Virus record (IMG/VR): IMGVR_UViG_3300031227_000023
Coordinates: 25,916 to 89,915 of that record
DNA length: 64,000 nt
Reading direction: 5' to 3' (one strand)
Origin: a virus
In this document: positions 2,633 through 40,904 of the stretch, one piece after another
Layout of the letters: every line of letters starts with the position of its first letter
How positions within the stretch are numbered: the stretch's first letter is position 1
The notes under the pieces: model-generated
Database searches by the model: none
The model's input: only the letters and a program-made list of their open reading frames with translations
Told to the model about the DNA's origin: nothing
Program-made: the position numbers and the translations under genes

Positions 2633-4492
2633 CTATGCTCCAAACGCAGCGTGCAAGGGAATGATCGGTGTTTCATGCGTTCCGAACCCACCCGCATCCA
2701 CTTCTGTTTGCGACCGAATCAAGGCATCAGATGCCGTTCTGCCATCCCATCGGTTGCCCAACGGAAACGCAGGGGTGCCAATCTTGGCAAGGTCAATCAC
2801 AGACGCATCAGCCGCAGGGTATGCAGGGACACTAGGGGTGCTAGCAAATAGCACCTCGATATCAAACGCCTTTCCACCACCTGCAAACGGGAAGGTTGTC
2901 ACCCCCAGATCATCACTATATAAAAAGTTGTCCCACTGCCACCCAGTTGCCATCTGCGTGGGAGTCAACAACGCATCAGGAATGGCTTCTGTGACTGCCC
3001 CTGTGATCAAATCAGCCATGAAAAACAACCAAAAAACATTATCTGTCACCAACTGATTCAAAGAATCCCAGATGAAATAATTAGGATTCCAAACAGCATC
3101 ACCCGTGCCGAACGATGTTGAACCCAACGCCACAAGATTTGGCACATCAGGACTGCCCGCAATATCAGGAACAATCGAAAGATCCATAGTACCCATGGCT
3201 GTCATGTTCAAGTGTTTCAGTGCCACACCCTTCAGCGTGCCCGGCACAATCGTTTGTGAAGAGTAATAACCCCCAAGCTGCGTGAACCGAACCATAAACA
3301 GCCTGTTGTTGATAAACGCAGTGCCGACACCCGCAGCGGTTTTGTTTTCCACCAAATAAATTCCATACTCCGTGGCTGCACCGAATCGTTGCGACAATGA
3401 ACCATCAGCCTTGTCAGCAGACAAATACCCCACCTTGGCTTCACCACGCAGCACATACCCCGGAACCTGCGGGCCAACAACTTGCACCCGCGTGCCTGTG
3501 TAGTATTCACCCGTTCCCTTATCGGACAAGGTGCGTTCGCCAATCGGGATCACGTCACTGTTGGCAGCATCCAACAAGTGCCCCGGTGTGACTAGTAAAT
3601 TGAATTCGTTCCCTGAACCACCCAACTGATCCGCAAGAATATGCGCCCCTTTAACCTGATAAGCAGCAGACGAACCACTAACACCCATGCCCGGTGGACT
3701 TCCGATGTACATCTTGCTTCCACCCATCCCAATTCCAACCGGCCTGCCCGCGCCCTCTATCACCTGCCCCGCTGTGGAGTGAAGCGAAACCTGCGCCCCT
3801 TGTGTCAGTGTGCCGGAAGCAACAACAGAATGCACCGGACCATGGAACACCACGTTGCACAGCCCATCATCAGCAACAGCACTTGCGCCTTGCACCGGAA
3901 GCACAACCGCCCGGACACAACCAACGATCACATCAGCGGCATCAGCAGAACTTGCCTTTGCAATGGTTGGAACGGACGGGCCACCCGGCAAATCGTACCA
4001 CCCGGTTTGCTTCACAAAACTACCCTGTGCAATCGGTGCCCCGGTTTGGTTTATGCAAATGCGCCCCGGTGCTTGATCCAACAACAGTTCAAACAGTTCT
4101 GTTGAAATCTCCCGTGTTTCACCCCATCCACGCGCACCGGCTTGCTCATTCTCTTCTTCATAAGCAGGCAACCGTTGCGCTGTTAGTGGTGTTGTCACCC
4201 CCACAAGCGTGGTCAATTCTTGCGACCCATACGCGCCGAGTGTGGCCGTTAACTTAATCATCCACGTCCCGTAGTGGTCCAACTCCAACGTGGGGTTGGC
4301 TGCACTTGCACTTGACAACACAGCAGTGCTGTTCCGTGGGCTTGTCACAATCTCCCACGCATACACAGAAATGTTGGTGTCATCATCCACGCCCAACGTG
4401 ATGATGGTCAACGGATTTGTAATACGCAAATCAAGCACCGGCCCATTGCCTGCGCCCGGCCCTGAATCAATCGTGATGTTTGCAACGGTCAT
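2633..4492 (-). CDS. Putative tail fibre/receptor-binding protein with N-terminal PKD/Ig-like domain
   Basis: 619 aa directly after the baseplate wedge; N-terminal YAWEIVTSPRNSTAVLSSASAANPTLELDHYGTWMIKLT is PKD-like. Confidence 0.55.
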   Translation of the reverse strand: MTVANITIDSGPGAGNGPVLDLRITNPLTIITLGVDDDTNISVYAWEIVTSPRNSTAVLSSASAANPTLELDHYGTWMIKLTATLGAYGSQELTTLVGVTTPLTAQRLPAYEEENEQAGARGWGETREISTELFELLLDQAPGRICINQTGAPIAQGSFVKQTGWYDLPGGPSVPTIAKASSADAADVIVGCVRAVVLPVQGASAVADDGLCNVVFHGPVHSVVASGTLTQGAQVSLHSTAGQVIEGAGRPVGIGMGGSKMYIGSPPGMGVSGSSAAYQVKGAHILADQLGGSGNEFNLLVTPGHLLDAANSDVIPIGERTLSDKGTGEYYTGTRVQVVGPQVPGYVLRGEAKVGYLSADKADGSLSQRFGAATEYGIYLVENKTAAGVGTAFINNRLFMVRFTQLGGYYSSQTIVPGTLKGVALKHLNMTAMGTMDLSIVPDIAGSPDVPNLVALGSTSFGTGDAVWNPNYFIWDSLNQLVTDNVFWLFFMADLITGAVTEAIPDALLTPTQMATGWQWDNFLYSDDLGVTTFPFAGGGKAFDIEVLFASTPSVPAYPAADASVIDLAKIGTPAFPLGNRWDGRTASDALIRSQTEVDAGGFGTHETPIIPLHAAFGA

Positions 4493-35385: not shown

Positions 35386-38300
35386 TTACTTGTACGCGCC
35401 GGTGTTAATTGATCCCAGCACACGCGTGAAATGGTCAACGTCTTGCATCACCTTCCCCGCAGACTTCCCATCAAAATATTCCATGCCCATGGATGTCACT
35501 TCTGTTGCATCCAAATCCTTCACGCTTCCACCACGTGGCGTTTTCACAGTCCCTTCCCTGTAATACAACCTACCAACATAGTGGTCTGTGAATTCAGGAT
35601 TACCCCGTTCGACTTTCACAACAATTTCATTCAACTTATATGCTTTGTTTCTTGTCAAATAACGCAGCGGGGTTTCCCCTCCTACAAATCCATCAGCATC
35701 TACTTTGGCGCGCTGCCACAGGAACCACTGCCCATTCTTCAGTGAATCAGAATTGAGTTCATCAAAATGATGTCCATATTCGTGCAGGAACTTGCGCCGT
35801 ACTTCTTCCTTTGACCACTCCGCATATTTCCGAACACGCACGTTTTTTGTTCCAATTGAAATAAACGCACGTTCATCAACCCCCTGGCTTGCTATTGATT
35901 TTGCAGACTCATAGAACGCCCCGCTTTTTGTTGGATCAACATCAACCCTGACAGCAGGCAACCGGCCACGAACAACACCACGACCGTACCGCGTCACATA
36001 ATCATAAATCGCACACCCTTCTTCAATCCCATCACGAACAGGCTTTGGAATTTTTGACCATTGTGCATAAGCCCCGGCATCATCCAAAAACTGTGCTTTG
36101 ATCCTGCCAAACAGCCGGGCTTGTTCAGGTATCGTTTCAACATACGCAAGGGATTTTTCTGCAATCTCACCAGCAACCTTGTGGTGCGCGACACTATCTA
36201 GTGCAAGAGTTCCGGAGGATTCCTTTCTAATCAAATCCTTCAATACCCACTCCCCACGCTTTCTGATCTGATCCACCCTGCCACTTTTCCTTGCCGACCC
36301 CCAACGCGCATCAACAGCCGGTGGCCTTGTACTTGACAACGGGCCAAGCACTTCATCACCACGCAAGCCTTCTTCAGGAACCAACTGCCATGGCTGTTCA
36401 TGCGGCTTCAACGGTGCAGGTACAGCAGGCTTGGGCACAGCAGCGGCAGTCCTGGCAGCAGCCGCACCCCCTGCCCATGGACCCAACCCACCGGGCACCG
36501 CAGTCTGTATGGCCTTCTGATTGTAAATAACAGTGGTCCTGCATAGCGGGTGGTACGGTGGCAAACTCATGCCCAAATCACGCATTTCCTTCACGGTGGA
36601 ATACTGCGAAGCATACTTGCCCGCATCCCATGTTCCCGCACCCGGCTTTGTGACAGTCATGATACTGTTGAACTGCCCCTGTTTATTCATCACCCCCCAG
36701 TCAGCACCCCGCCTGCGCACCCATGGCATTTCAAATTTAATATCTTCAGGATCAGCCAAGTTGTCAGTTGACGTTTGGTGTTCATGCGCAACCTCAACAT
36801 CTATTACTTTACCATGGATGTACCGGCAATTATGAACAACAACCCCTTCTGCAATGTATGTTGGGTCATCTTCCACTTCAAGGTTGTACACGTAACATGC
36901 ACGCCGCACCTTGCGAACGGCAACAACCTTTTCTAGCCTAGTGCCCCTGCAATACTCTTCAACACTACGTTCTCCGGATTCCCTTGATTCAATTGCTCGC
37001 CCGTAATCCTGATCAGTTTCCACCCCATGCCTGCAATTGCTTGTTCTTTTCTTTCCGTCGCATCCTCCCTGAACCCTTCCCTGTGCCAATACTCCCCGTC
37101 CACCTCGATTGCGAGACCGTGCTCCGGTAGAAAGAAATCTACATTGAATCGGTCGACGGGCTTCTCTAGCTCGTAATTGATTCGATTCTTTTCCAACACT
37201 TCCGCAACGATTTCTTCCAACCCCGTTGCCCCCTTCCCAATCAAAAGGCATCTGCGCGAACAATGCTGCCTCTTGACCACTTCCGATTTCTTGATAACAA
37301 ACTTTTTCCCGCACTCCTCGCACGTTATCGTTTCCCTTTGATCCTTCCACCGGCATGCCCGTGAACACGTAGTGCGGGTTTTCCCGGAAAAAAATTCCAC
37401 TGGCTTTATTCTGAACTCCCCCCCACATACAACGCACCGCTTCACCAACAATGCCGGATTCAACCCCTTCCTTCCAGCTTCCACCCTGCACTGATCCGAA
37501 CAATGCTTCATCTGCCCCCGTTTCACATAACACTGCCTTGCCGTGAATGCCTTGCCGCACCATTGACAAACCATTTCCACATTGTTCATCCGATATTTGT
37601 TGTAACAATCCGTGCCGCAATACTGAGCCCTGTTCCCCACCGCTTGAAACGTCTTTCCGCAACCCTTGCATTTCTTCTCTATAGACAAGGCTGTCTCCTT
37701 TCCGCAATTCTCCAATAGGTCTCCATCCATCTGCGGTAAGGATACGATGTTTTTTTGTTGCAATCAAATGATTGCCGGACTGGAGTTGCACTTCAATCAA
37801 CTCTTCATCAACAAATCTTTTCGATACAGCCAACACGTGCCTCAACACCCCTGATCCCGTCACGACAACATCACCCGCATCAATGCTGTCTATACGTTTT
37901 TCCCCTAACTCTGTTTTTACTTTTGTTTCGCCAGAAAAACACCATTCTGTGGTTCGTTCATCCATCACCGCATAGGCAATTACCTCTGTAATGCCCGCTT
38001 CCATGAAGCCGTGCAACTGCGCCCGTGAACGGGAACGCGCAACCAAGTTGTGCGCCACCACCGTCCAATAATTCTTCATCTGCTGTTCATACCCGACACC
38101 AACCGCACTACGCAGGTTGTCCCCGATTTGGCCCGCACCCAACCCTTCACGCAAGCCCTGTTCAATGATCCCCCGTGACTTGTTGGCCATACTCATGGAC
38201 ACGCGCCCGGCCTGATTCCGTACATAAAAGTTCTGATCTTTGACCAACGCTTTGATGGCTTCAGTGTCCTGAAGGTTCAAGCGTGCAGATATCCCAAGGT

Positions 38301-38991
38301 CAGGGCCAATCTGCTTCTTCACTTCACCCATTACTTCACGTGCAGACGTTGACAGGCTGCTTGTAAATGATGCAGACACGGATGCCCACTTTGATGCCGG
38401 AACAAACACCGACACAGCAGACAATGCAGATTCACGCTGCGCCGCTGTCATCCCCTTCCAATTCCTGCCAAGCAGGCCAAGGATTCCACGAATATGCGCC
38501 TGCGTGGCAGGCTTTGACAGGTTGGCCAACTGCCTGCCCAAGCTGTTGGTAATTGCAAGATACCCTTCAGGCGTCAACGGGTTTGCGGCTTTCTCCAACC
38601 GGTACAACGCATGGGCAAGTTCATCACTGGCATCAATCGCGTTGATTGCACTCTGCAAGTTCCCGCAACACATTTCATGGTACTGCGCCACGTCTTCACA
38701 CAGCAGGCTGCCACCAATCACACCCTTCACCATGCACACCGTCACGGGGAACGCCCGTGCTTCACCAACAGCACTGTGCAAACGATCCTGCCCAACGCCT
38801 TCAGTGAACCTGCGCACCAACTGCCCCTGCCCATCAACCACTGCCATTCCGCTTGCCTGCGCAGTGATCCCGCCCACAATACCCTTGGCAATCAGTTCAT
38901 TTTGGAACCGGGCAGGAACAGACCCAACCACCCGCATCCCCTGCGCATCATGCTTGGCCAGCAAGTGCCCGCCAATCAGCACAGTTTTCAT
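35386..38991 (-). CDS. MuF (SPP1 gp7-like) head morphogenesis protein with intein and C-terminal HExxH metallopeptidase-like domain
   Basis: AVMDERTTEW|intein|CRYIHGK...PPYHPLCRTTV MuF motifs; C-terminal FLHEYGHHFD...TEVTSMGMEYF. Confidence 0.88.
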   Translation of the reverse strand: MKTVLIGGHLLAKHDAQGMRVVGSVPARFQNELIAKGIVGGITAQASGMAVVDGQGQLVRRFTEGVGQDRLHSAVGEARAFPVTVCMVKGVIGGSLLCEDVAQYHEMCCGNLQSAINAIDASDELAHALYRLEKAANPLTPEGYLAITNSLGRQLANLSKPATQAHIRGILGLLGRNWKGMTAAQRESALSAVSVFVPASKWASVSASFTSSLSTSAREVMGEVKKQIGPDLGISARLNLQDTEAIKALVKDQNFYVRNQAGRVSMSMANKSRGIIEQGLREGLGAGQIGDNLRSAVGVGYEQQMKNYWTVVAHNLVARSRSRAQLHGFMEAGITEVIAYAVMDERTTEWCFSGETKVKTELGEKRIDSIDAGDVVVTGSGVLRHVLAVSKRFVDEELIEVQLQSGNHLIATKKHRILTADGWRPIGELRKGDSLVYREEMQGLRKDVSSGGEQGSVLRHGLLQQISDEQCGNGLSMVRQGIHGKAVLCETGADEALFGSVQGGSWKEGVESGIVGEAVRCMWGGVQNKASGIFFRENPHYVFTGMPVEGSKGNDNVRGVREKVCYQEIGSGQEAALFAQMPFDWEGGNGVGRNRCGSVGKESNQLRAREARRPIQCRFLSTGARSRNRGGRGVLAQGRVQGGCDGKKRTSNCRHGVETDQDYGRAIESRESGERSVEEYCRGTRLEKVVAVRKVRRACYVYNLEVEDDPTYIAEGVVVHNCRYIHGKVIDVEVAHEHQTSTDNLADPEDIKFEMPWVRRRGADWGVMNKQGQFNSIMTVTKPGAGTWDAGKYASQYSTVKEMRDLGMSLPPYHPLCRTTVIYNQKAIQTAVPGGLGPWAGGAAAARTAAAVPKPAVPAPLKPHEQPWQLVPEEGLRGDEVLGPLSSTRPPAVDARWGSARKSGRVDQIRKRGEWVLKDLIRKESSGTLALDSVAHHKVAGEIAEKSLAYVETIPEQARLFGRIKAQFLDDAGAYAQWSKIPKPVRDGIEEGCAIYDYVTRYGRGVVRGRLPAVRVDVDPTKSGAFYESAKSIASQGVDERAFISIGTKNVRVRKYAEWSKEEVRRKFLHEYGHHFDELNSDSLKNGQWFLWQRAKVDADGFVGGETPLRYLTRNKAYKLNEIVVKVERGNPEFTDHYVGRLYYREGTVKTPRGGSVKDLDATEVTSMGMEYFDGKSAGKVMQDVDHFTRVLGSINTGAYK
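36933..37688 (-). CDS. Nested out-of-frame endonuclease: four Zn-ribbon repeats + DUF559/Vsr-like PD-(D/E)xK domain
   Basis: +1 frame within the intein; TTG start at 37688; CxxCGKxF...CSxxC x4; VDFFLPEHGLAIEVDGEYWH...GWKLIRI. Confidence 0.85.
   Translation of the reverse strand: MSIEKKCKGCGKTFQAVGNRAQYCGTDCYNKYRMNNVEMVCQWCGKAFTARQCYVKRGQMKHCSDQCRVEAGRKGLNPALLVKRCVVCGGEFRIKPVEFFSGKTRTTCSRACRWKDQRETITCEECGKKFVIKKSEVVKRQHCSRRCLLIGKGATGLEEIVAEVLEKNRINYELEKPVDRFNVDFFLPEHGLAIEVDGEYWHREGFREDATERKEQAIAGMGWKLIRITGEQLNQGNPENVVLKSIAGALG
37689..37700 (-). promoter_or_regulatory. Internal Shine-Dalgarno (AAGGAG) for the nested endonuclease
   Basis: Minus strand AAGGAG-acagcc-TTG, embedded in intein codons for RKGDSL. 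Confidence 0.7.
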
Positions 38992-40904
38992 TTCACACCC
39001 AACTCTGCACGCTGTTGGTCAAAGTCAATTTCAATCTGCTGTTGCACACCGGCCTGATGCTGCACCTTCATCAGATGCGCCAGCAGAACACGCACTGCCC
39101 CGTTCACATCCAAATCTGCCGCCTGTGTCACGACCTGTCTGCTTGCAGCACCTTCACCTTCTCCCCCGTCTTCTGCCCCATCCTGCCCGCCCTGCTGCAC
39201 AGAACCGTCACCCTGTGCATCATCAGGTTCCACGTTCGGGTCTTCCCAGAAAGCAAATCCCTGTTGGGTCAAGGCCAACGGCTGCTGTGTCCACAATTCC
39301 ATGATCTTGTCAAAGTCCCTATTGAACACACCGGATACAATTTCCCGTGCTTCAGCAGGCGTCAAGATCCCCTGCTGCACCATCAGTGCCACCAATTTCC
39401 CAAGCACTTCCGGGTCTTGTGTGGTGGGTGACAATGAACGGAACTTCACCAACCTGATACCCAACTCATTGACCAACAACGTTTTGTTCAGGAACGCATC
39501 AAAGGCTTCCCGTTCGGGCTGAAACACTTGCTCCTCAGCTTGCCGCATTGCCGCACTTGCTGTGGCCTTGTTAAAATCTTTTGTGTCACCGATCACAATG
39601 GGTGGCAACCGGAATGCGCTGCGGATCTTGTCTGTGGCCTGTAAGTCATATTCAAGAAACAGCCCATCCTTTTCCTGTGCATGCGTCAACGGCTGAATTT
39701 CAATCTTGACCACCCCCGGCTTTTCACCCGGCACACTGAACGGTTCCCCTTCCAGCACCAAAACACTCTGGAAACTTTCACTGCCCTTCAGCTTCTTAAT
39801 ATGGTCTTTGATATTCTTGACGGTTTCGGCAGTGGCCCGCCCACCATGAACCATCACTGCCAATGCAGGCACGGTATTATTGTCTGCATATGCCCGGTTG
39901 ACGCCATCAAACTTGCGCTGCCCAACCACGGATTCACTTGTGCCGATCCAACGCGGCTGCCCGTAACTTGAACCCGCTGCGTACAGCTTAAAATGAATCA
40001 CTTCCGTGGCAGGCAAATCACCATCGGGCTTGTCCTGATCAGCATCAAAGGCAGCCATGTCAACATACACCTTGCCGGTTTTCCTGCTGATCACGCGGGT
40101 GTCGCCAAATTCTTTGAAATAGACCAATTTCCCATCACCCAAGGCTTCCACGAACGTGCGGAACTTCTTGTTGATTTTCCTGTCTTTCCACGTCAACGGG
40201 GAAACCTGCACCCGTTCTTCTATCTGCACCGGTGCCGCAATCTTCGGACGCAGCCGCATGTTTTCCGCAGGCAGGTGATTGACACGCCTTGGCTTGTTGT
40301 CTTTGGTGCGCAGGATTTCCCAATACCCATTGCCGCAGGTTTCCAAGTCAATCCGAGTCTTCCTGCGCAGGGCAATGAACGTTCCTTCACACAGACTGTC
40401 AAACCAAGTTTTTAAGGCAAACCGTTCAACCGCTTCCCTGCGCCGCAACCCATCCATCACCACCAACACTTCTTCATCAGTGGGCACGGTTGCTTCCGGC
40501 ACGTCATTATCCAACGCCAACAGCGGGTCATCCGTATCACCAAGGTACTGTTCAAGCACCATGGCTTGCCGCACGGCTTCAATGTCTTCATCCCCTGCCA
40601 ACTCATAAATGGACTCGATCCGATTCCCAAACCCATCAATGTTGGTGGCGTATGCTTCAAAGCAGCGTGGCAGGGTGGGGGAATGATCCCCCCAAAAAAA
40701 CATATGGGACAACTTCACCGGTGGCGTGATCACCCCGGCACCGCCAAACACCTTGGCATCTTCTTCTTCCGGGTCAATGTATGCCGTTGTCAACCAATCG
40801 GCAACCGCGTCTGCGGCATCTTCCTTCTGCACGCTGATCACATGCAGGGTTCCGTTTTTCCGTGTATCTTCAGCGGGCATGGCACTTGCTCCATTCGGTT
40901 GCAA
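38988..40904 (-). CDS. Portal protein (PBSX-like)
   Basis: DLETCGNGYWEI, EVIHFK..YGQPRW, IRSAFRLPPIVIG..FNKATA, GILTPAEAR. Confidence 0.92.
   Translation of the reverse strand: MQPNGASAMPAEDTRKNGTLHVISVQKEDAADAVADWLTTAYIDPEEEDAKVFGGAGVITPPVKLSHMFFWGDHSPTLPRCFEAYATNIDGFGNRIESIYELAGDEDIEAVRQAMVLEQYLGDTDDPLLALDNDVPEATVPTDEEVLVVMDGLRRREAVERFALKTWFDSLCEGTFIALRRKTRIDLETCGNGYWEILRTKDNKPRRVNHLPAENMRLRPKIAAPVQIEERVQVSPLTWKDRKINKKFRTFVEALGDGKLVYFKEFGDTRVISRKTGKVYVDMAAFDADQDKPDGDLPATEVIHFKLYAAGSSYGQPRWIGTSESVVGQRKFDGVNRAYADNNTVPALAVMVHGGRATAETVKNIKDHIKKLKGSESFQSVLVLEGEPFSVPGEKPGVVKIEIQPLTHAQEKDGLFLEYDLQATDKIRSAFRLPPIVIGDTKDFNKATASAAMRQAEEQVFQPEREAFDAFLNKTLLVNELGIRLVKFRSLSPTTQDPEVLGKLVALMVQQGILTPAEAREIVSGVFNRDFDKIMELWTQQPLALTQQGFAFWEDPNVEPDDAQGDGSVQQGGQDGAEDGGEGEGAASRQVVTQAADLDVNGAVRVLLAHLMKVQHQAGVQQQIEIDFDQQRAELGVK

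Follow-up and report, generated by a model that had tools for sequence, protein, structure and literature searches.

Our analysis indicates that the putative MuF gene in the window carries a mobile intein whose homing endonuclease is a separate gene, which overlaps the central region of the intein on the same strand in the +1 frame (we put the probability of this reading at roughly 0.85). The window is the whole stretch of 64,000 nucleotides that was analysed, taken from IMG/VR virus record IMGVR_UViG_3300031227_000023, and the positions of its features are listed in Table 1. The same offset, with both frames open, was found in the window and in the lineages L069, L134, L002, L003, L004, L007 and L241, giving eight IMG/VR phage lineages, and the nucleases of the other lineages are 30-76% identical to that of the window.

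Table 1. Features of the intein-containing gene and of the nested nuclease gene, with positions in the window.
Feature	Position	Strand	Evidence
Host gene, 1201-aa precursor of a putative MuF/SPP1-gp7-like minor head (morphogenesis) protein	35386..38991	-	Single continuous ORF including the intein
N-extein, C-terminal end ...AVMDERTTEW	37942..38991	-	Motif AVLDERTT kept in MuF relatives
Class-1 intein, 371 aa (C1 ... H370 N371)	36829..37941	-	Intein_splicing 49.3 bits, Hint_2 39.4 bits; invariant splicing residues
N-terminal splicing region of the intein (residues 1-94), comprising blocks A and B with TxxH	37660..37941	-	pLDDT; Hint_2 match
Shine-Dalgarno (SD) sequence AAGGAG of the nested nuclease	37695..37700	-	Made by intein Lys-Gly-Asp codons; conserved in L069, L134, L004, L241
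Predicted TTG start of the nuclease (+1 frame)	37686..37688	-	TTG at the homologous intein position in L069, L134, L002, L004, L241
Nested gene of the putative homing endonuclease (251 aa and TAG), in +1 frame to the intein	36933..37688	-	ORF, profile and fold evidence
Four CxxC...CxxxC zinc-ribbon modules, nuclease residues 7-147, presumed DNA-binding region	37248..37670	-	Invariant Cys; pLDDT >90
Intein-frame linker, residues 95-322, stop-free passenger translation of the nuclease gene	36976..37659	-	pLDDT <50; no Pfam domain
Vsr-like/EDxHD-family nuclease domain, residues about 156-251	36936..37223	-	3r3p and Vsr matches; DUF559
C-terminal splicing region of the intein (residues 323-371), comprising blocks F and G, ...YNLEVEDDPTYIAEGVVVHN	36829..36975	-	pLDDT; YNLEVE conserved
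+1 Cys codon, first C-extein residue (CRYIHGK...)	36826..36828	-	Intein-less alleles read ...TTxx/CRxLDG at the same point (slash, insertion point)

Host gene and intein

The ORF listing shows that the 1201-aa host ORF stays open across the intein region, and the gene lies directly downstream of a portal gene (ORF 38991-40904, Phage_portal, E 7.9e-22). PHROG profiles of head morphogenesis and minor head proteins gave weak matches to the host protein (E 2e-4 to 2.5e-3), while TIGR01641, whose domain is split by the intein, scored 14.3 bits on the N-extein alone, below its cut-off of 39.65. No match was obtained in a Pfam scan of the two exteins taken separately or in a scan of viral contigs with the N-extein, and the N-extein alignment comprised four sequences. 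These weak profile matches and the synteny suggest, tentatively, a MuF/SPP1-gp7-like protein. The AVLDERTT motif was conserved in the approximately 60 MuF relatives where it was located, of which 55 are intein-less and read ...DERTTxx/CRxLDG... without an insert.

The intein runs from CFSGETKV to VVVHN and is followed by the +1 Cys. The splicing blocks that had been reported as intact (C1, TxxH and HN/C+1) are indeed so, since an alignment of 14 inteins shows no variation at C1, T62/H65 (TxxH) or H370/N371, and YNLEVE in the C-terminal region is conserved there as well. In the intein frame, Pfam matches were confined to the Hint/Intein_splicing ends (Intein_splicing 49.3 bits, cut-off 35.8; Hint_2 at residues 1-47, E 1e-9). 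In the predicted fold, residues 1-90 are all beta strands with pLDDT 90-96, and the C-terminal part from about residue 330 to 371 has pLDDT 88-96. The N-terminal (1-94) and C-terminal (323-371) parts hold all splicing residues and together form a confident predicted Hint fold. The stretch between them, described earlier as about 250 residues without recognisable motifs, proved to have no Pfam domain and, at residues 95-322, pLDDT below 50 with no confident predicted structure; its conservation in the intein frame is no higher than in the closed third frame. These data show the 228 residues to be a structureless read-through of the nuclease gene, which behaves as a passenger linker. Because its splicing residues are intact, its Hint fold is predicted with confidence and the host frame is open, the intein would be capable of protein splicing.

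The nested nuclease

The +1-frame ORF spans 36933-37763 (276 aa counted from the first TTG). It had been read by eye as four zinc ribbons followed by a DUF559/Vsr-like nuclease, and both parts were recovered by profile and fold comparison. DUF559 scored 27.8 bits (Pfam cut-off 20.6), and MTES_1575 and Vsr also matched, each below its own cut-off. In 55 nuclease relatives the cysteines of three modules are invariant (C41/44/63/67, C85/88/108/112 and C123/126/143/147), as are the presumed catalytic residues D184, E195, D197 and H202, with E158 nearly so; the first module (C7, C10, C24 and C28) was read directly from the sequence. The nuclease fold was predicted with pLDDT 94.7. Its profile matched 3r3p (I-Bth0305I) with E 1.8e-15 and Vsr (1cw0) with E 2.4e-4, and 3r3p was also the best solved match in Foldseek (target TM 0.76). 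An exhaustive search yielded 4,955 relatives at E 1e-3 or better, compared with one weak match in a word-based search. The TAG (36933-36935) falls 35 codons before the intein end, at the first C-terminal Hint strand, which agrees with its predicted place just before block F. The evidence supports a Vsr-like/EDxHD homing endonuclease of free-standing type, which occupies the canonical endonuclease insertion site.

Start site and expression

The spacer between AAGGAG and TTG is 6 nt, and the whole element, which sits where the N-terminal splicing region ends, is built from the K-G-D-S-L codons of the intein; the proposal that an AAGGAG-N6-TTG start is made out of the RKGDSL codons holds, and its position is conserved across lineages. 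In five lineages AAGGAG or AAGGAGG is followed by TTG at intein residue ~84. The start in L002 is a TTG with a weaker purine-rich SD, and L003 and L007 have ATG at intein residues 79-87 without a clear SD. Elsewhere in the window, further long ORFs have AAGGAG 8 nt ahead of their candidate start codons. L134 has a nuclease-frame stop 4 codons upstream of the TTG, so that this TTG is the first possible start, and in L003 such a stop overlaps the ATG as TGATG; because of these stops, only these starts are possible in the two lineages. In non-nested relatives of the nuclease the protein has a few residues ahead of the first CxxC, and a product begun at the TTG would match them in this.

These starts bear on another route of expression, namely programmed +1 frameshifting by the ribosome or slippage during transcription. 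Either of these, at a site such as the A7 run in ACAAAAAAACAT, would give a fusion of N-extein, N-intein and nuclease, not a free protein. In the window the open +1 frame does have the A7 run at its 5' end, and in both the window and L069 it stays open over about 25 codons ahead of the TTG. However, the run is not conserved (A5 in L069 and absent in the others), the upstream stops of L134 and L003 lie so close to the start that a shift has hardly any room, and the conserved element is the SD-TTG. Taken with the starts of the non-nested relatives, this makes a shifted fusion product most improbable, and initiation at the SD-TTG, internal to a translated ORF, is what the sequence would suggest.

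A sigma-70-like promoter was sought inside the intein upstream of the nuclease and not found, so the nuclease would most likely ride on the late MuF mRNA. Nor was conserved RNA structure found around the SD and start (-2.9 kcal/mol, one covarying pair). The original prediction that nuclease expression is uncoupled from the host protein therefore fits for translation and does not for transcription.

Dual coding and selection by frame

Synonymous codons of the nuclease ORF were permuted and the stops arising in the intein frame were counted. For the window, the permuted sequences had 12.9 intein-frame stops on average and none of 20,000 was open. Across six loci the permutation mean ranged from 6.8 to 12.9 stops, while the observed number was 0 in 6/6 (P(open) <=2e-4 each); the third frame of these loci has 10-22 stops. 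The earlier crude estimate for both frames staying open, (61/64)^252 or about 6e-6, was of the right order, and the absence of intein-frame stops requires selection, as had been argued from it. The intein frame is free of stops only because no T-ending nuclease codon precedes a codon starting with AA, AG or GA. At such at-risk codons T was never used at the third position in the nested genes (0/416, against 27% at their other codons), whereas antisense-nested and free-standing relatives have T at 26% and 35% of them. The constraint on the intein frame can always be satisfied by synonymous choice in the nuclease.

When the window is compared with L069, the nuclease-frame translations are 76% identical, against 56% for the intein frame and 53% for the closed third frame, and differences at nuclease codon positions 1, 2 and 3 amount to 0.16, 0.17 and 0.36. 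Purifying selection thus acts in the nuclease frame only and not in the overlapping intein frame. Together with stop avoidance, the sequence comparisons support dual coding that is real and kept by selection.

Selection also bears on whether the nuclease is a silent relic, in an intein that is now inherited only vertically and whose nuclease frame stayed open through recent ancestry. L008, nearly identical to L007, has a nonsense codon in the nuclease while its intein frame is still open, so an intein can outlast its nuclease. Among the nested lineages, though, the nuclease frame is open, its 12 core Cys and the D/E/D/H residues are invariant at 30-40% identity, and substitutions are concentrated at nuclease third codon positions; moreover, the intein is sporadic among MuF alleles. 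A relic is accordingly very unlikely.

Distribution, relatives and origin

The possibility, raised with the original prediction, that an in-frame nuclease domain was displaced by two compensating frameshift errors in sequencing or assembly has a negligible probability. The window is a metagenomic contig and the region does contain short homopolymer runs, but the offset is common to eight diverged, independently assembled contigs, the nuclease frame comes with an SD, a start and a stop of its own, and an intein frame with zero stops needs selection. In addition, contigs of four further salt-lake runs reproduce the stretch 36600-38200 without an indel. In low-depth contigs of these runs, the extein flanks have 18 SNPs in run X4 and 7 in run X5, and the 1113-nt intein has 0; this lack of variation inside the intein in other runs counts among the signs of mobility, but it could also reflect double constraint on that DNA.

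Relatives at the same MuF site include an intein-less allele in L214, which reads TTDI/CRCLDG exactly where L004 has its intein and matches L004 across the junction, and a mini-intein in L072. These alleles, the 55 intein-less relatives and the broken nuclease of L008 are further signs of mobility. In L005 and L006 the nucleases are nested antisense in the MuF inteins, in L015/L168 a DUF559-type nuclease is in frame within MuF inteins, and in L011/L160 the nuclease is in frame with the N-intein only. In the nuclease tree the in-frame forms fall in the other half, and the sense-nested cluster lies near free-standing and antisense-nested genes.

The in-frame forms (L015/L168 and L011/L160) would suit a different origin with the same present function, in which an ordinary in-frame domain was put out of frame by indels and got its own start and stop later. 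We regard this origin as unlikely, because the in-frame forms are placed away from the sense-nested cluster in the tree, indels cannot produce the antisense-nested siblings that share this MuF intein site, and a mini-intein occupies the site in L072. Most likely a free-standing endonuclease gene would have settled in a mini-intein. The invasion of a mini-intein out of frame, as originally proposed, is plausible in light of L072, although we infer the event itself.

No cultured example of this arrangement was found by blastn or tblastn against cultured phages. Blastn of the region gave no match, tblastn of the whole precursor gave one short intein match only, and with the nuclease the tblastn matches were all distant genes of mycobacteriophages and a Microcystis phage that are annotated as stand-alone.

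Discussion

For the mobile intein with a separate, overlapping endonuclease gene, the following cycle can be proposed. Ribosomes starting at the MuF ATG would make the precursor, whose Hint domain would fold despite the disordered loop between its halves and remove that loop by splicing to give a functional head protein, while initiation at the internal SD-TTG on the same late mRNA would give the free endonuclease. In mixed infection the endonuclease would cut intein-less MuF alleles at or near the conserved DERTT/CR (the target is assumed from the insertion site), and recombinational repair would copy the intein and the nuclease gene together (homing).

The sense-nested inteins are independent evidence, from uncultured phages, that an intein and a homing endonuclease can pair as two overlapping genes and not as one fused protein; such an association supports the view that splicing came first and that endonucleases invade later. 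Since the SD-TTG is conserved, translation of the hidden gene is directly testable, and the lack of T-ending codons before AA, AG or GA offers a simple screen of 'mini' or 'degenerate' inteins for endonucleases missed by gene callers. With its linker, the intein is a natural example of predicted tolerance to 228 unstructured inserted residues, which makes it interesting for intein engineering, and the four zinc ribbons with an EDxHD domain may represent an uncharacterised type of DNA-recognition architecture.

Comparison with known systems

Inteins with out-of-frame or antisense endonucleases are already known as a class from preprints of 2025-26, and the statement in the original prediction that this overlapping architecture had not been characterised does not stand. 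Gosselin, Arsenault & Gogarten (bioRxiv 10.1101/2025.01.02.630785) described actinobacteriophage inteins whose endonucleases are antisense or are read in a separate frame, in hosts that include minor capsid (SPP1 gp7-family) proteins, and proposed invasion by a free-standing endonuclease gene as the origin. As in the present case, those inteins are contiguous, with the endonuclease at the insertion site in another frame or strand and an intein-frame insert without recognisable structure; theirs are splicing-competent. In that study, however, the Vsr-like endonuclease was antisense only, and same-strand out-of-frame endonucleases were only endonuclease VII-like, in frame 3. Here a Vsr-like/EDxHD nuclease with zinc ribbons lies on the sense strand in the +1 frame, in uncultured phages, with a conserved SD-TTG made from intein codons and a quantified stop-avoidance signature. 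What is new here is a Vsr-like version that lies on the same strand in the +1 frame and whose start is made of intein codons.

Phillips, DeSimone & Gogarten (bioRxiv 10.64898/2026.09.14.751524) reported an out-of-frame LAGLIDADG endonuclease in a cyanobacterial dnaX intein, with selection analysed per frame. That intein also has overlapping frames, a disordered intein-frame segment against a high-confidence endonuclease, frame-dependent purifying selection and a proposed secondary invasion of a mini-intein, and differs in its LAGLIDADG family, +2 ORF, host gene (dnaX) and occurrence in cyanobacteria.

Against this background, we consider it moderately probable, for the reading taken as a whole, that the sense-strand, +1-frame Vsr-like/EDxHD gene is a fifth, unreported organisation of intein and endonuclease. 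Under this joint reading the overlap would be old and stable and no transient accident, having persisted while the nuclease diverged to about 30% identity; the conserved Lys/Glu-Gly-Asp-x-Leu codons of the intein would have been co-opted as ribosome-binding site and TTG; and the +1 offset would be favoured because every intein-frame stop is avoidable by synonymous nuclease changes. The sense-nested inteins and their antisense siblings at the same MuF site would then form a natural series for the passage from free-standing endonuclease to intein domain.

Dassa et al. 2009 (PMC2677866) described fractured genes in which split inteins are accompanied by free-standing genes of Vsr-like endonucleases; short overlaps occur where the 3' end of the endonuclease runs into the intein part downstream. 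There too, a related Vsr-like endonuclease sits at the endonuclease site of the intein as a separate gene with its own signals. In those systems the host gene and intein are broken into two separately translated ORFs whose products are rejoined by trans-splicing, whereas here the intein frame is open across the nuclease in a single, contiguous ORF of 1201 aa.

I-Bth0305I, the prototype EDxHD homing endonuclease (Taylor et al. 2011, PMC3239194; PDB 3r3p), cleaves the uninterrupted allele beside the insertion site. Its catalytic domain is homologous to that of the nested nuclease by profile and by fold, but it resides in a group I intron and carries N-terminal NUMOD/helix-turn-helix motifs, where the nuclease studied here has four zinc ribbons and lies inside an intein. 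Finally, a 2025 study (PMC11855218) found an insertion that is stop-free in the frame of the host gene and conceals a homing endonuclease in an alternative frame. Both systems combine an alternative-frame endonuclease with a host frame kept free of stops; that insertion has an HNH nuclease and no splicing domain, so the read-through peptide stays in the host protein.

Nuclease and host intein

Read from a TTG, the +1-frame ORF on the intein strand encodes a 251-aa nuclease that combines four CxxC...CxxxC modules with a DUF559/Vsr-like domain; the coordinates and motifs in the original prediction were all confirmed by ORF scan, Pfam and alignment. Exhaustive HMMER search with this protein retrieved 4,955 relatives at E <=1e-3, most of them 230-400 aa long, and in an alignment of 55 relatives twelve Cys as well as D184, E195, D197 and H202 are invariant. 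The profile from this alignment best matched the I-Bth0305I catalytic domain (3r3p, E 1.8e-15), followed by Vsr, and 3r3p was again the first Foldseek hit (target TM 0.76) of the AlphaFold2 model (mean pLDDT 94.7). Judging from sequence and predicted structure, the nuclease is a member of the Vsr-like/EDxHD homing endonuclease family, which was defined via fractured genes (Dassa et al. 2009, PMC2677866) and I-Bth0305I (Taylor et al. 2011, PMC3239194), with zinc ribbons where I-Bth0305I has NUMOD/HTH motifs.

One 60-nt low-depth contig from the salt-lake metagenome run X4 fuses 37386 to 37501. The skipped 114 nt (37387-37500; 38 codons, in frame for both nuclease and intein) amount to about one zinc-ribbon module, and may represent a minor deletion variant or an assembly-graph artefact at the repeats. 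A terminator-like hairpin also lies within the nuclease/intein overlap (37434-37454, minus strand), the hairpin count being not above shuffled expectation.

The window belongs to an 89.9-kb IMG/VR viral contig. The host ORF, preceded by a portal gene (Phage_portal, E 7.9e-22), gave weak head-morphogenesis and minor-head-protein matches, and TIGR01641 scored under threshold on the N-extein (the N-terminal host-protein part) alone; the best reading of the host ORF is a MuF/SPP1-gp7-like protein. Its C-terminal ~330 aa (35386-36400) follow PPYHPLCRT and a linker rich in Ala and Pro; the HExxH motif FLHEYGHHF appears in their translation. Pfam matches in the intein frame (Hint_2 and Intein_splicing) are confined to the two intein ends, and an alignment of 14 inteins shows no variation at C1, T62/H65 (TxxH) or H370/N371. 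In the predicted fold, residues 1-90 and ~330-371 form beta strands (pLDDT 88-96), and residues 95-322 have pLDDT <50.

Features of the window and of related loci (L-numbers, other contigs or loci; SD, Shine-Dalgarno; a slash marks a predicted splice junction or an insertion point here and in the text)
Locus	Feature	Position	Strand	Remark
Window	Host ORF, 1201 aa, uninterrupted	35386-38991	minus	ORF scan
Window	Intein, CFSGETKV...VVVHN then Cys	36829-37941 (host ORF residues 351-721)	minus	
Window	+1-frame ORF	36933-37763	minus (intein strand)	ORF scan
Window	Nuclease start TTG	37686-37688	minus	
Window	SD AAGGAG	37695-37700	minus	six bases before TTG
L069, L134, L004	AAGGAG-N6-TTG	homologous position		
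L241	AAGGAGG-N5-TTG	homologous position		
L002	TTG with weaker purine-rich SD	homologous position		
L003, L007	ATG	intein residues 79-87		
L007	Intein, DEVT/C...HN/TDQCRF	2806-4041		
L122, L139 (=L005), L142 (=L006), L145-L149, L153-L155, L159	Antisense-nested nuclease	MuF site		
L167	Antisense-nested nuclease			in MuF-like fusion

Dual coding of the intein region

The same architecture was detected in seven other IMG/VR contigs (L069, L134, L002, L003, L004, L007 and L241), each with a MuF-like ORF containing an intein, a nuclease at +1 and both frames open. Compensating frameshift errors of assembly could also place a nuclease out of frame; however, these diverged contigs (nucleases 30-76% identical to that of the window) share the +1 arrangement, and the stretch 36600-38200 recurs without an indel in contigs of four other salt-lake metagenome runs, so this explanation is disposed of.

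Synonymous codons were permuted within each nuclease gene, with protein and codon usage preserved. The expected number of intein-frame stops was 6.8-12.9, while none was observed in 6/6 loci tested (P(open) = 0 in 20,000 permutations at five loci and 2e-4 at one); the third frame contains 10-22 stops, matching expectation. An intein-frame stop arises only where a nuclease codon with T in third position precedes one that begins with AA, AG or GA, and any stop so created is removable by a synonymous nuclease change. Among the seven sense-nested genes analysed (nuclease on the intein strand, +1 frame), 0/416 codons before AA/AG/GA end in T, versus 27% of the remaining codons. For antisense-nested (opposite strand) and free-standing relatives, the values at such codons are 26% and 35%, equal to their own background.

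Identity between the window and L069 is 76% in the nuclease frame, 56% in the intein frame and 53% in the closed third frame, with differences at nuclease codon positions 1, 2 and 3 of 0.16, 0.17 and 0.36; the nuclease frame, not the intein frame, is conserved. Selection, which had been predicted from the open frames, is thus borne out by permutation stop counts, T avoidance and frame-wise identity. Purifying selection on sequence acts on the nuclease frame only, and the intein frame is selected only for staying open. At the sequence level, the dual coding is real, statistically secure and mechanistically coherent.

Probable start site and expression of the nuclease

The SD-TTG of the window is encoded by the intein codons ...R-K-G-D-S-L... 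(intein residue ~84). Frameshifting from the MuF frame could in principle produce the nuclease, but the nuclease frame of L134 and of L003 has a stop just upstream of the start, so that the listed starts are the first possible ones, which argues for internal initiation instead. AAGGAG also stands 8 bases ahead of a candidate start in at least four other long ORFs of the window, where the frequency of this hexamer is not above chance. Searches revealed neither a promoter-like site within the intein nor conserved RNA structure around the nuclease start; therefore, the nuclease is most probably translated from the late MuF mRNA. Its expression, originally predicted to be uncoupled from that of the host protein, would be so at translation but not at transcription. 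The nuclease TAG coincides with the first C-terminal Hint strand and is 35 codons ahead of the intein end (27-40 codons ahead in other lineages).

Indications of mobility and alternative configurations

Among ~60 MuF relatives retrieved via the conserved flank, 55 have no intein and read ...DERTTxx/CRxLDG.... One intein-less allele, L214, belongs to the same MuF subgroup as the intein-bearing L004 (81% amino-acid identity across the 70-residue N-flank, 65% DNA identity across the 600 nt surrounding the junction), and this junction coincides exactly with the insertion point. L072 has a mini-intein of 175 aa at the same MuF site. In L008, nearly identical to L007, a single substitution (4417-4421) turns LACY into LAC-stop in the nuclease and Pro into Thr in the still open intein frame, which resembles endonuclease decay at an early stage. 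The extein flanks (36600-36828, 37942-38200) contain 18 SNPs over 229 nt in X4 and 7, upstream, in X5 (another salt-lake run), and the 1113-nt intein contains zero SNPs in other salt-lake runs; this pattern is expected if one intein spread among diverged MuF alleles, but is only suggestive because the contigs are low-depth.

The insertion point of the L007 intein lies three residues upstream of that of the others, its +1 residue is Thr, and its nuclease is likewise in the +1 frame. In the nuclease tree (built before L241 was found and excluding it), the six other sense-nested genes form a well-supported clade (SH-aLRT 97), and L007 falls outside, grouping with L137. The zinc-ribbon/Vsr-like family is often antisense-nested in inteins at the same MuF site (CFP...HN/C..C..DG), with a host ORF of 500-1750 aa open on the opposite strand; in L123 (Gordoniibacillus kamchatkensis genome), the nuclease is antisense in an intein of a different host protein. 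In the 1523-aa MuF-like protein of L015 (= L168), a second site (PVHFN/CFIDG...VVHN/CRC) holds an intein with an in-frame DUF559-type nuclease, and some relatives appear free-standing. In L011 (= L160), around 3560-3700, the N-terminal intein part shares its frame with the nuclease, which terminates at a stop codon. The C-terminal part (SVYNLAVEEDESYVAENVVVHN, then C) lies in another frame overlapping the last ~20 nuclease codons; possible readings are a split intein ("fractured gene"), a half-shifted intermediate and one sequencing error.

Comparison with known systems

Gosselin, Arsenault & Gogarten (bioRxiv 10.1101/2025.01.02.630785) described inteins of actinophages whose endonuclease is either a LAGLIDADG or Vsr-like gene in antisense orientation or an endonuclease VII-like gene on the same strand in frame 3, and they found only such non-canonical forms in minor capsid inteins; our antisense-nested relatives match their antisense Vsr-like type. 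In dnaX inteins, Phillips et al. (bioRxiv 10.64898/2026.09.14.751524) described a LAGLIDADG gene lying out of frame and analysed selection per frame. Because of these two reports, the initial view that the architecture was not characterised no longer holds. What is apparently new is the combination of a same-strand +1-frame Vsr-like gene, a conserved SD-TTG that makes use of codons of the intein, and the signature of T avoidance, for which the literature examined contains no report; the arrangement adds a variant to the recently described kind of intein with an out-of-frame endonuclease.
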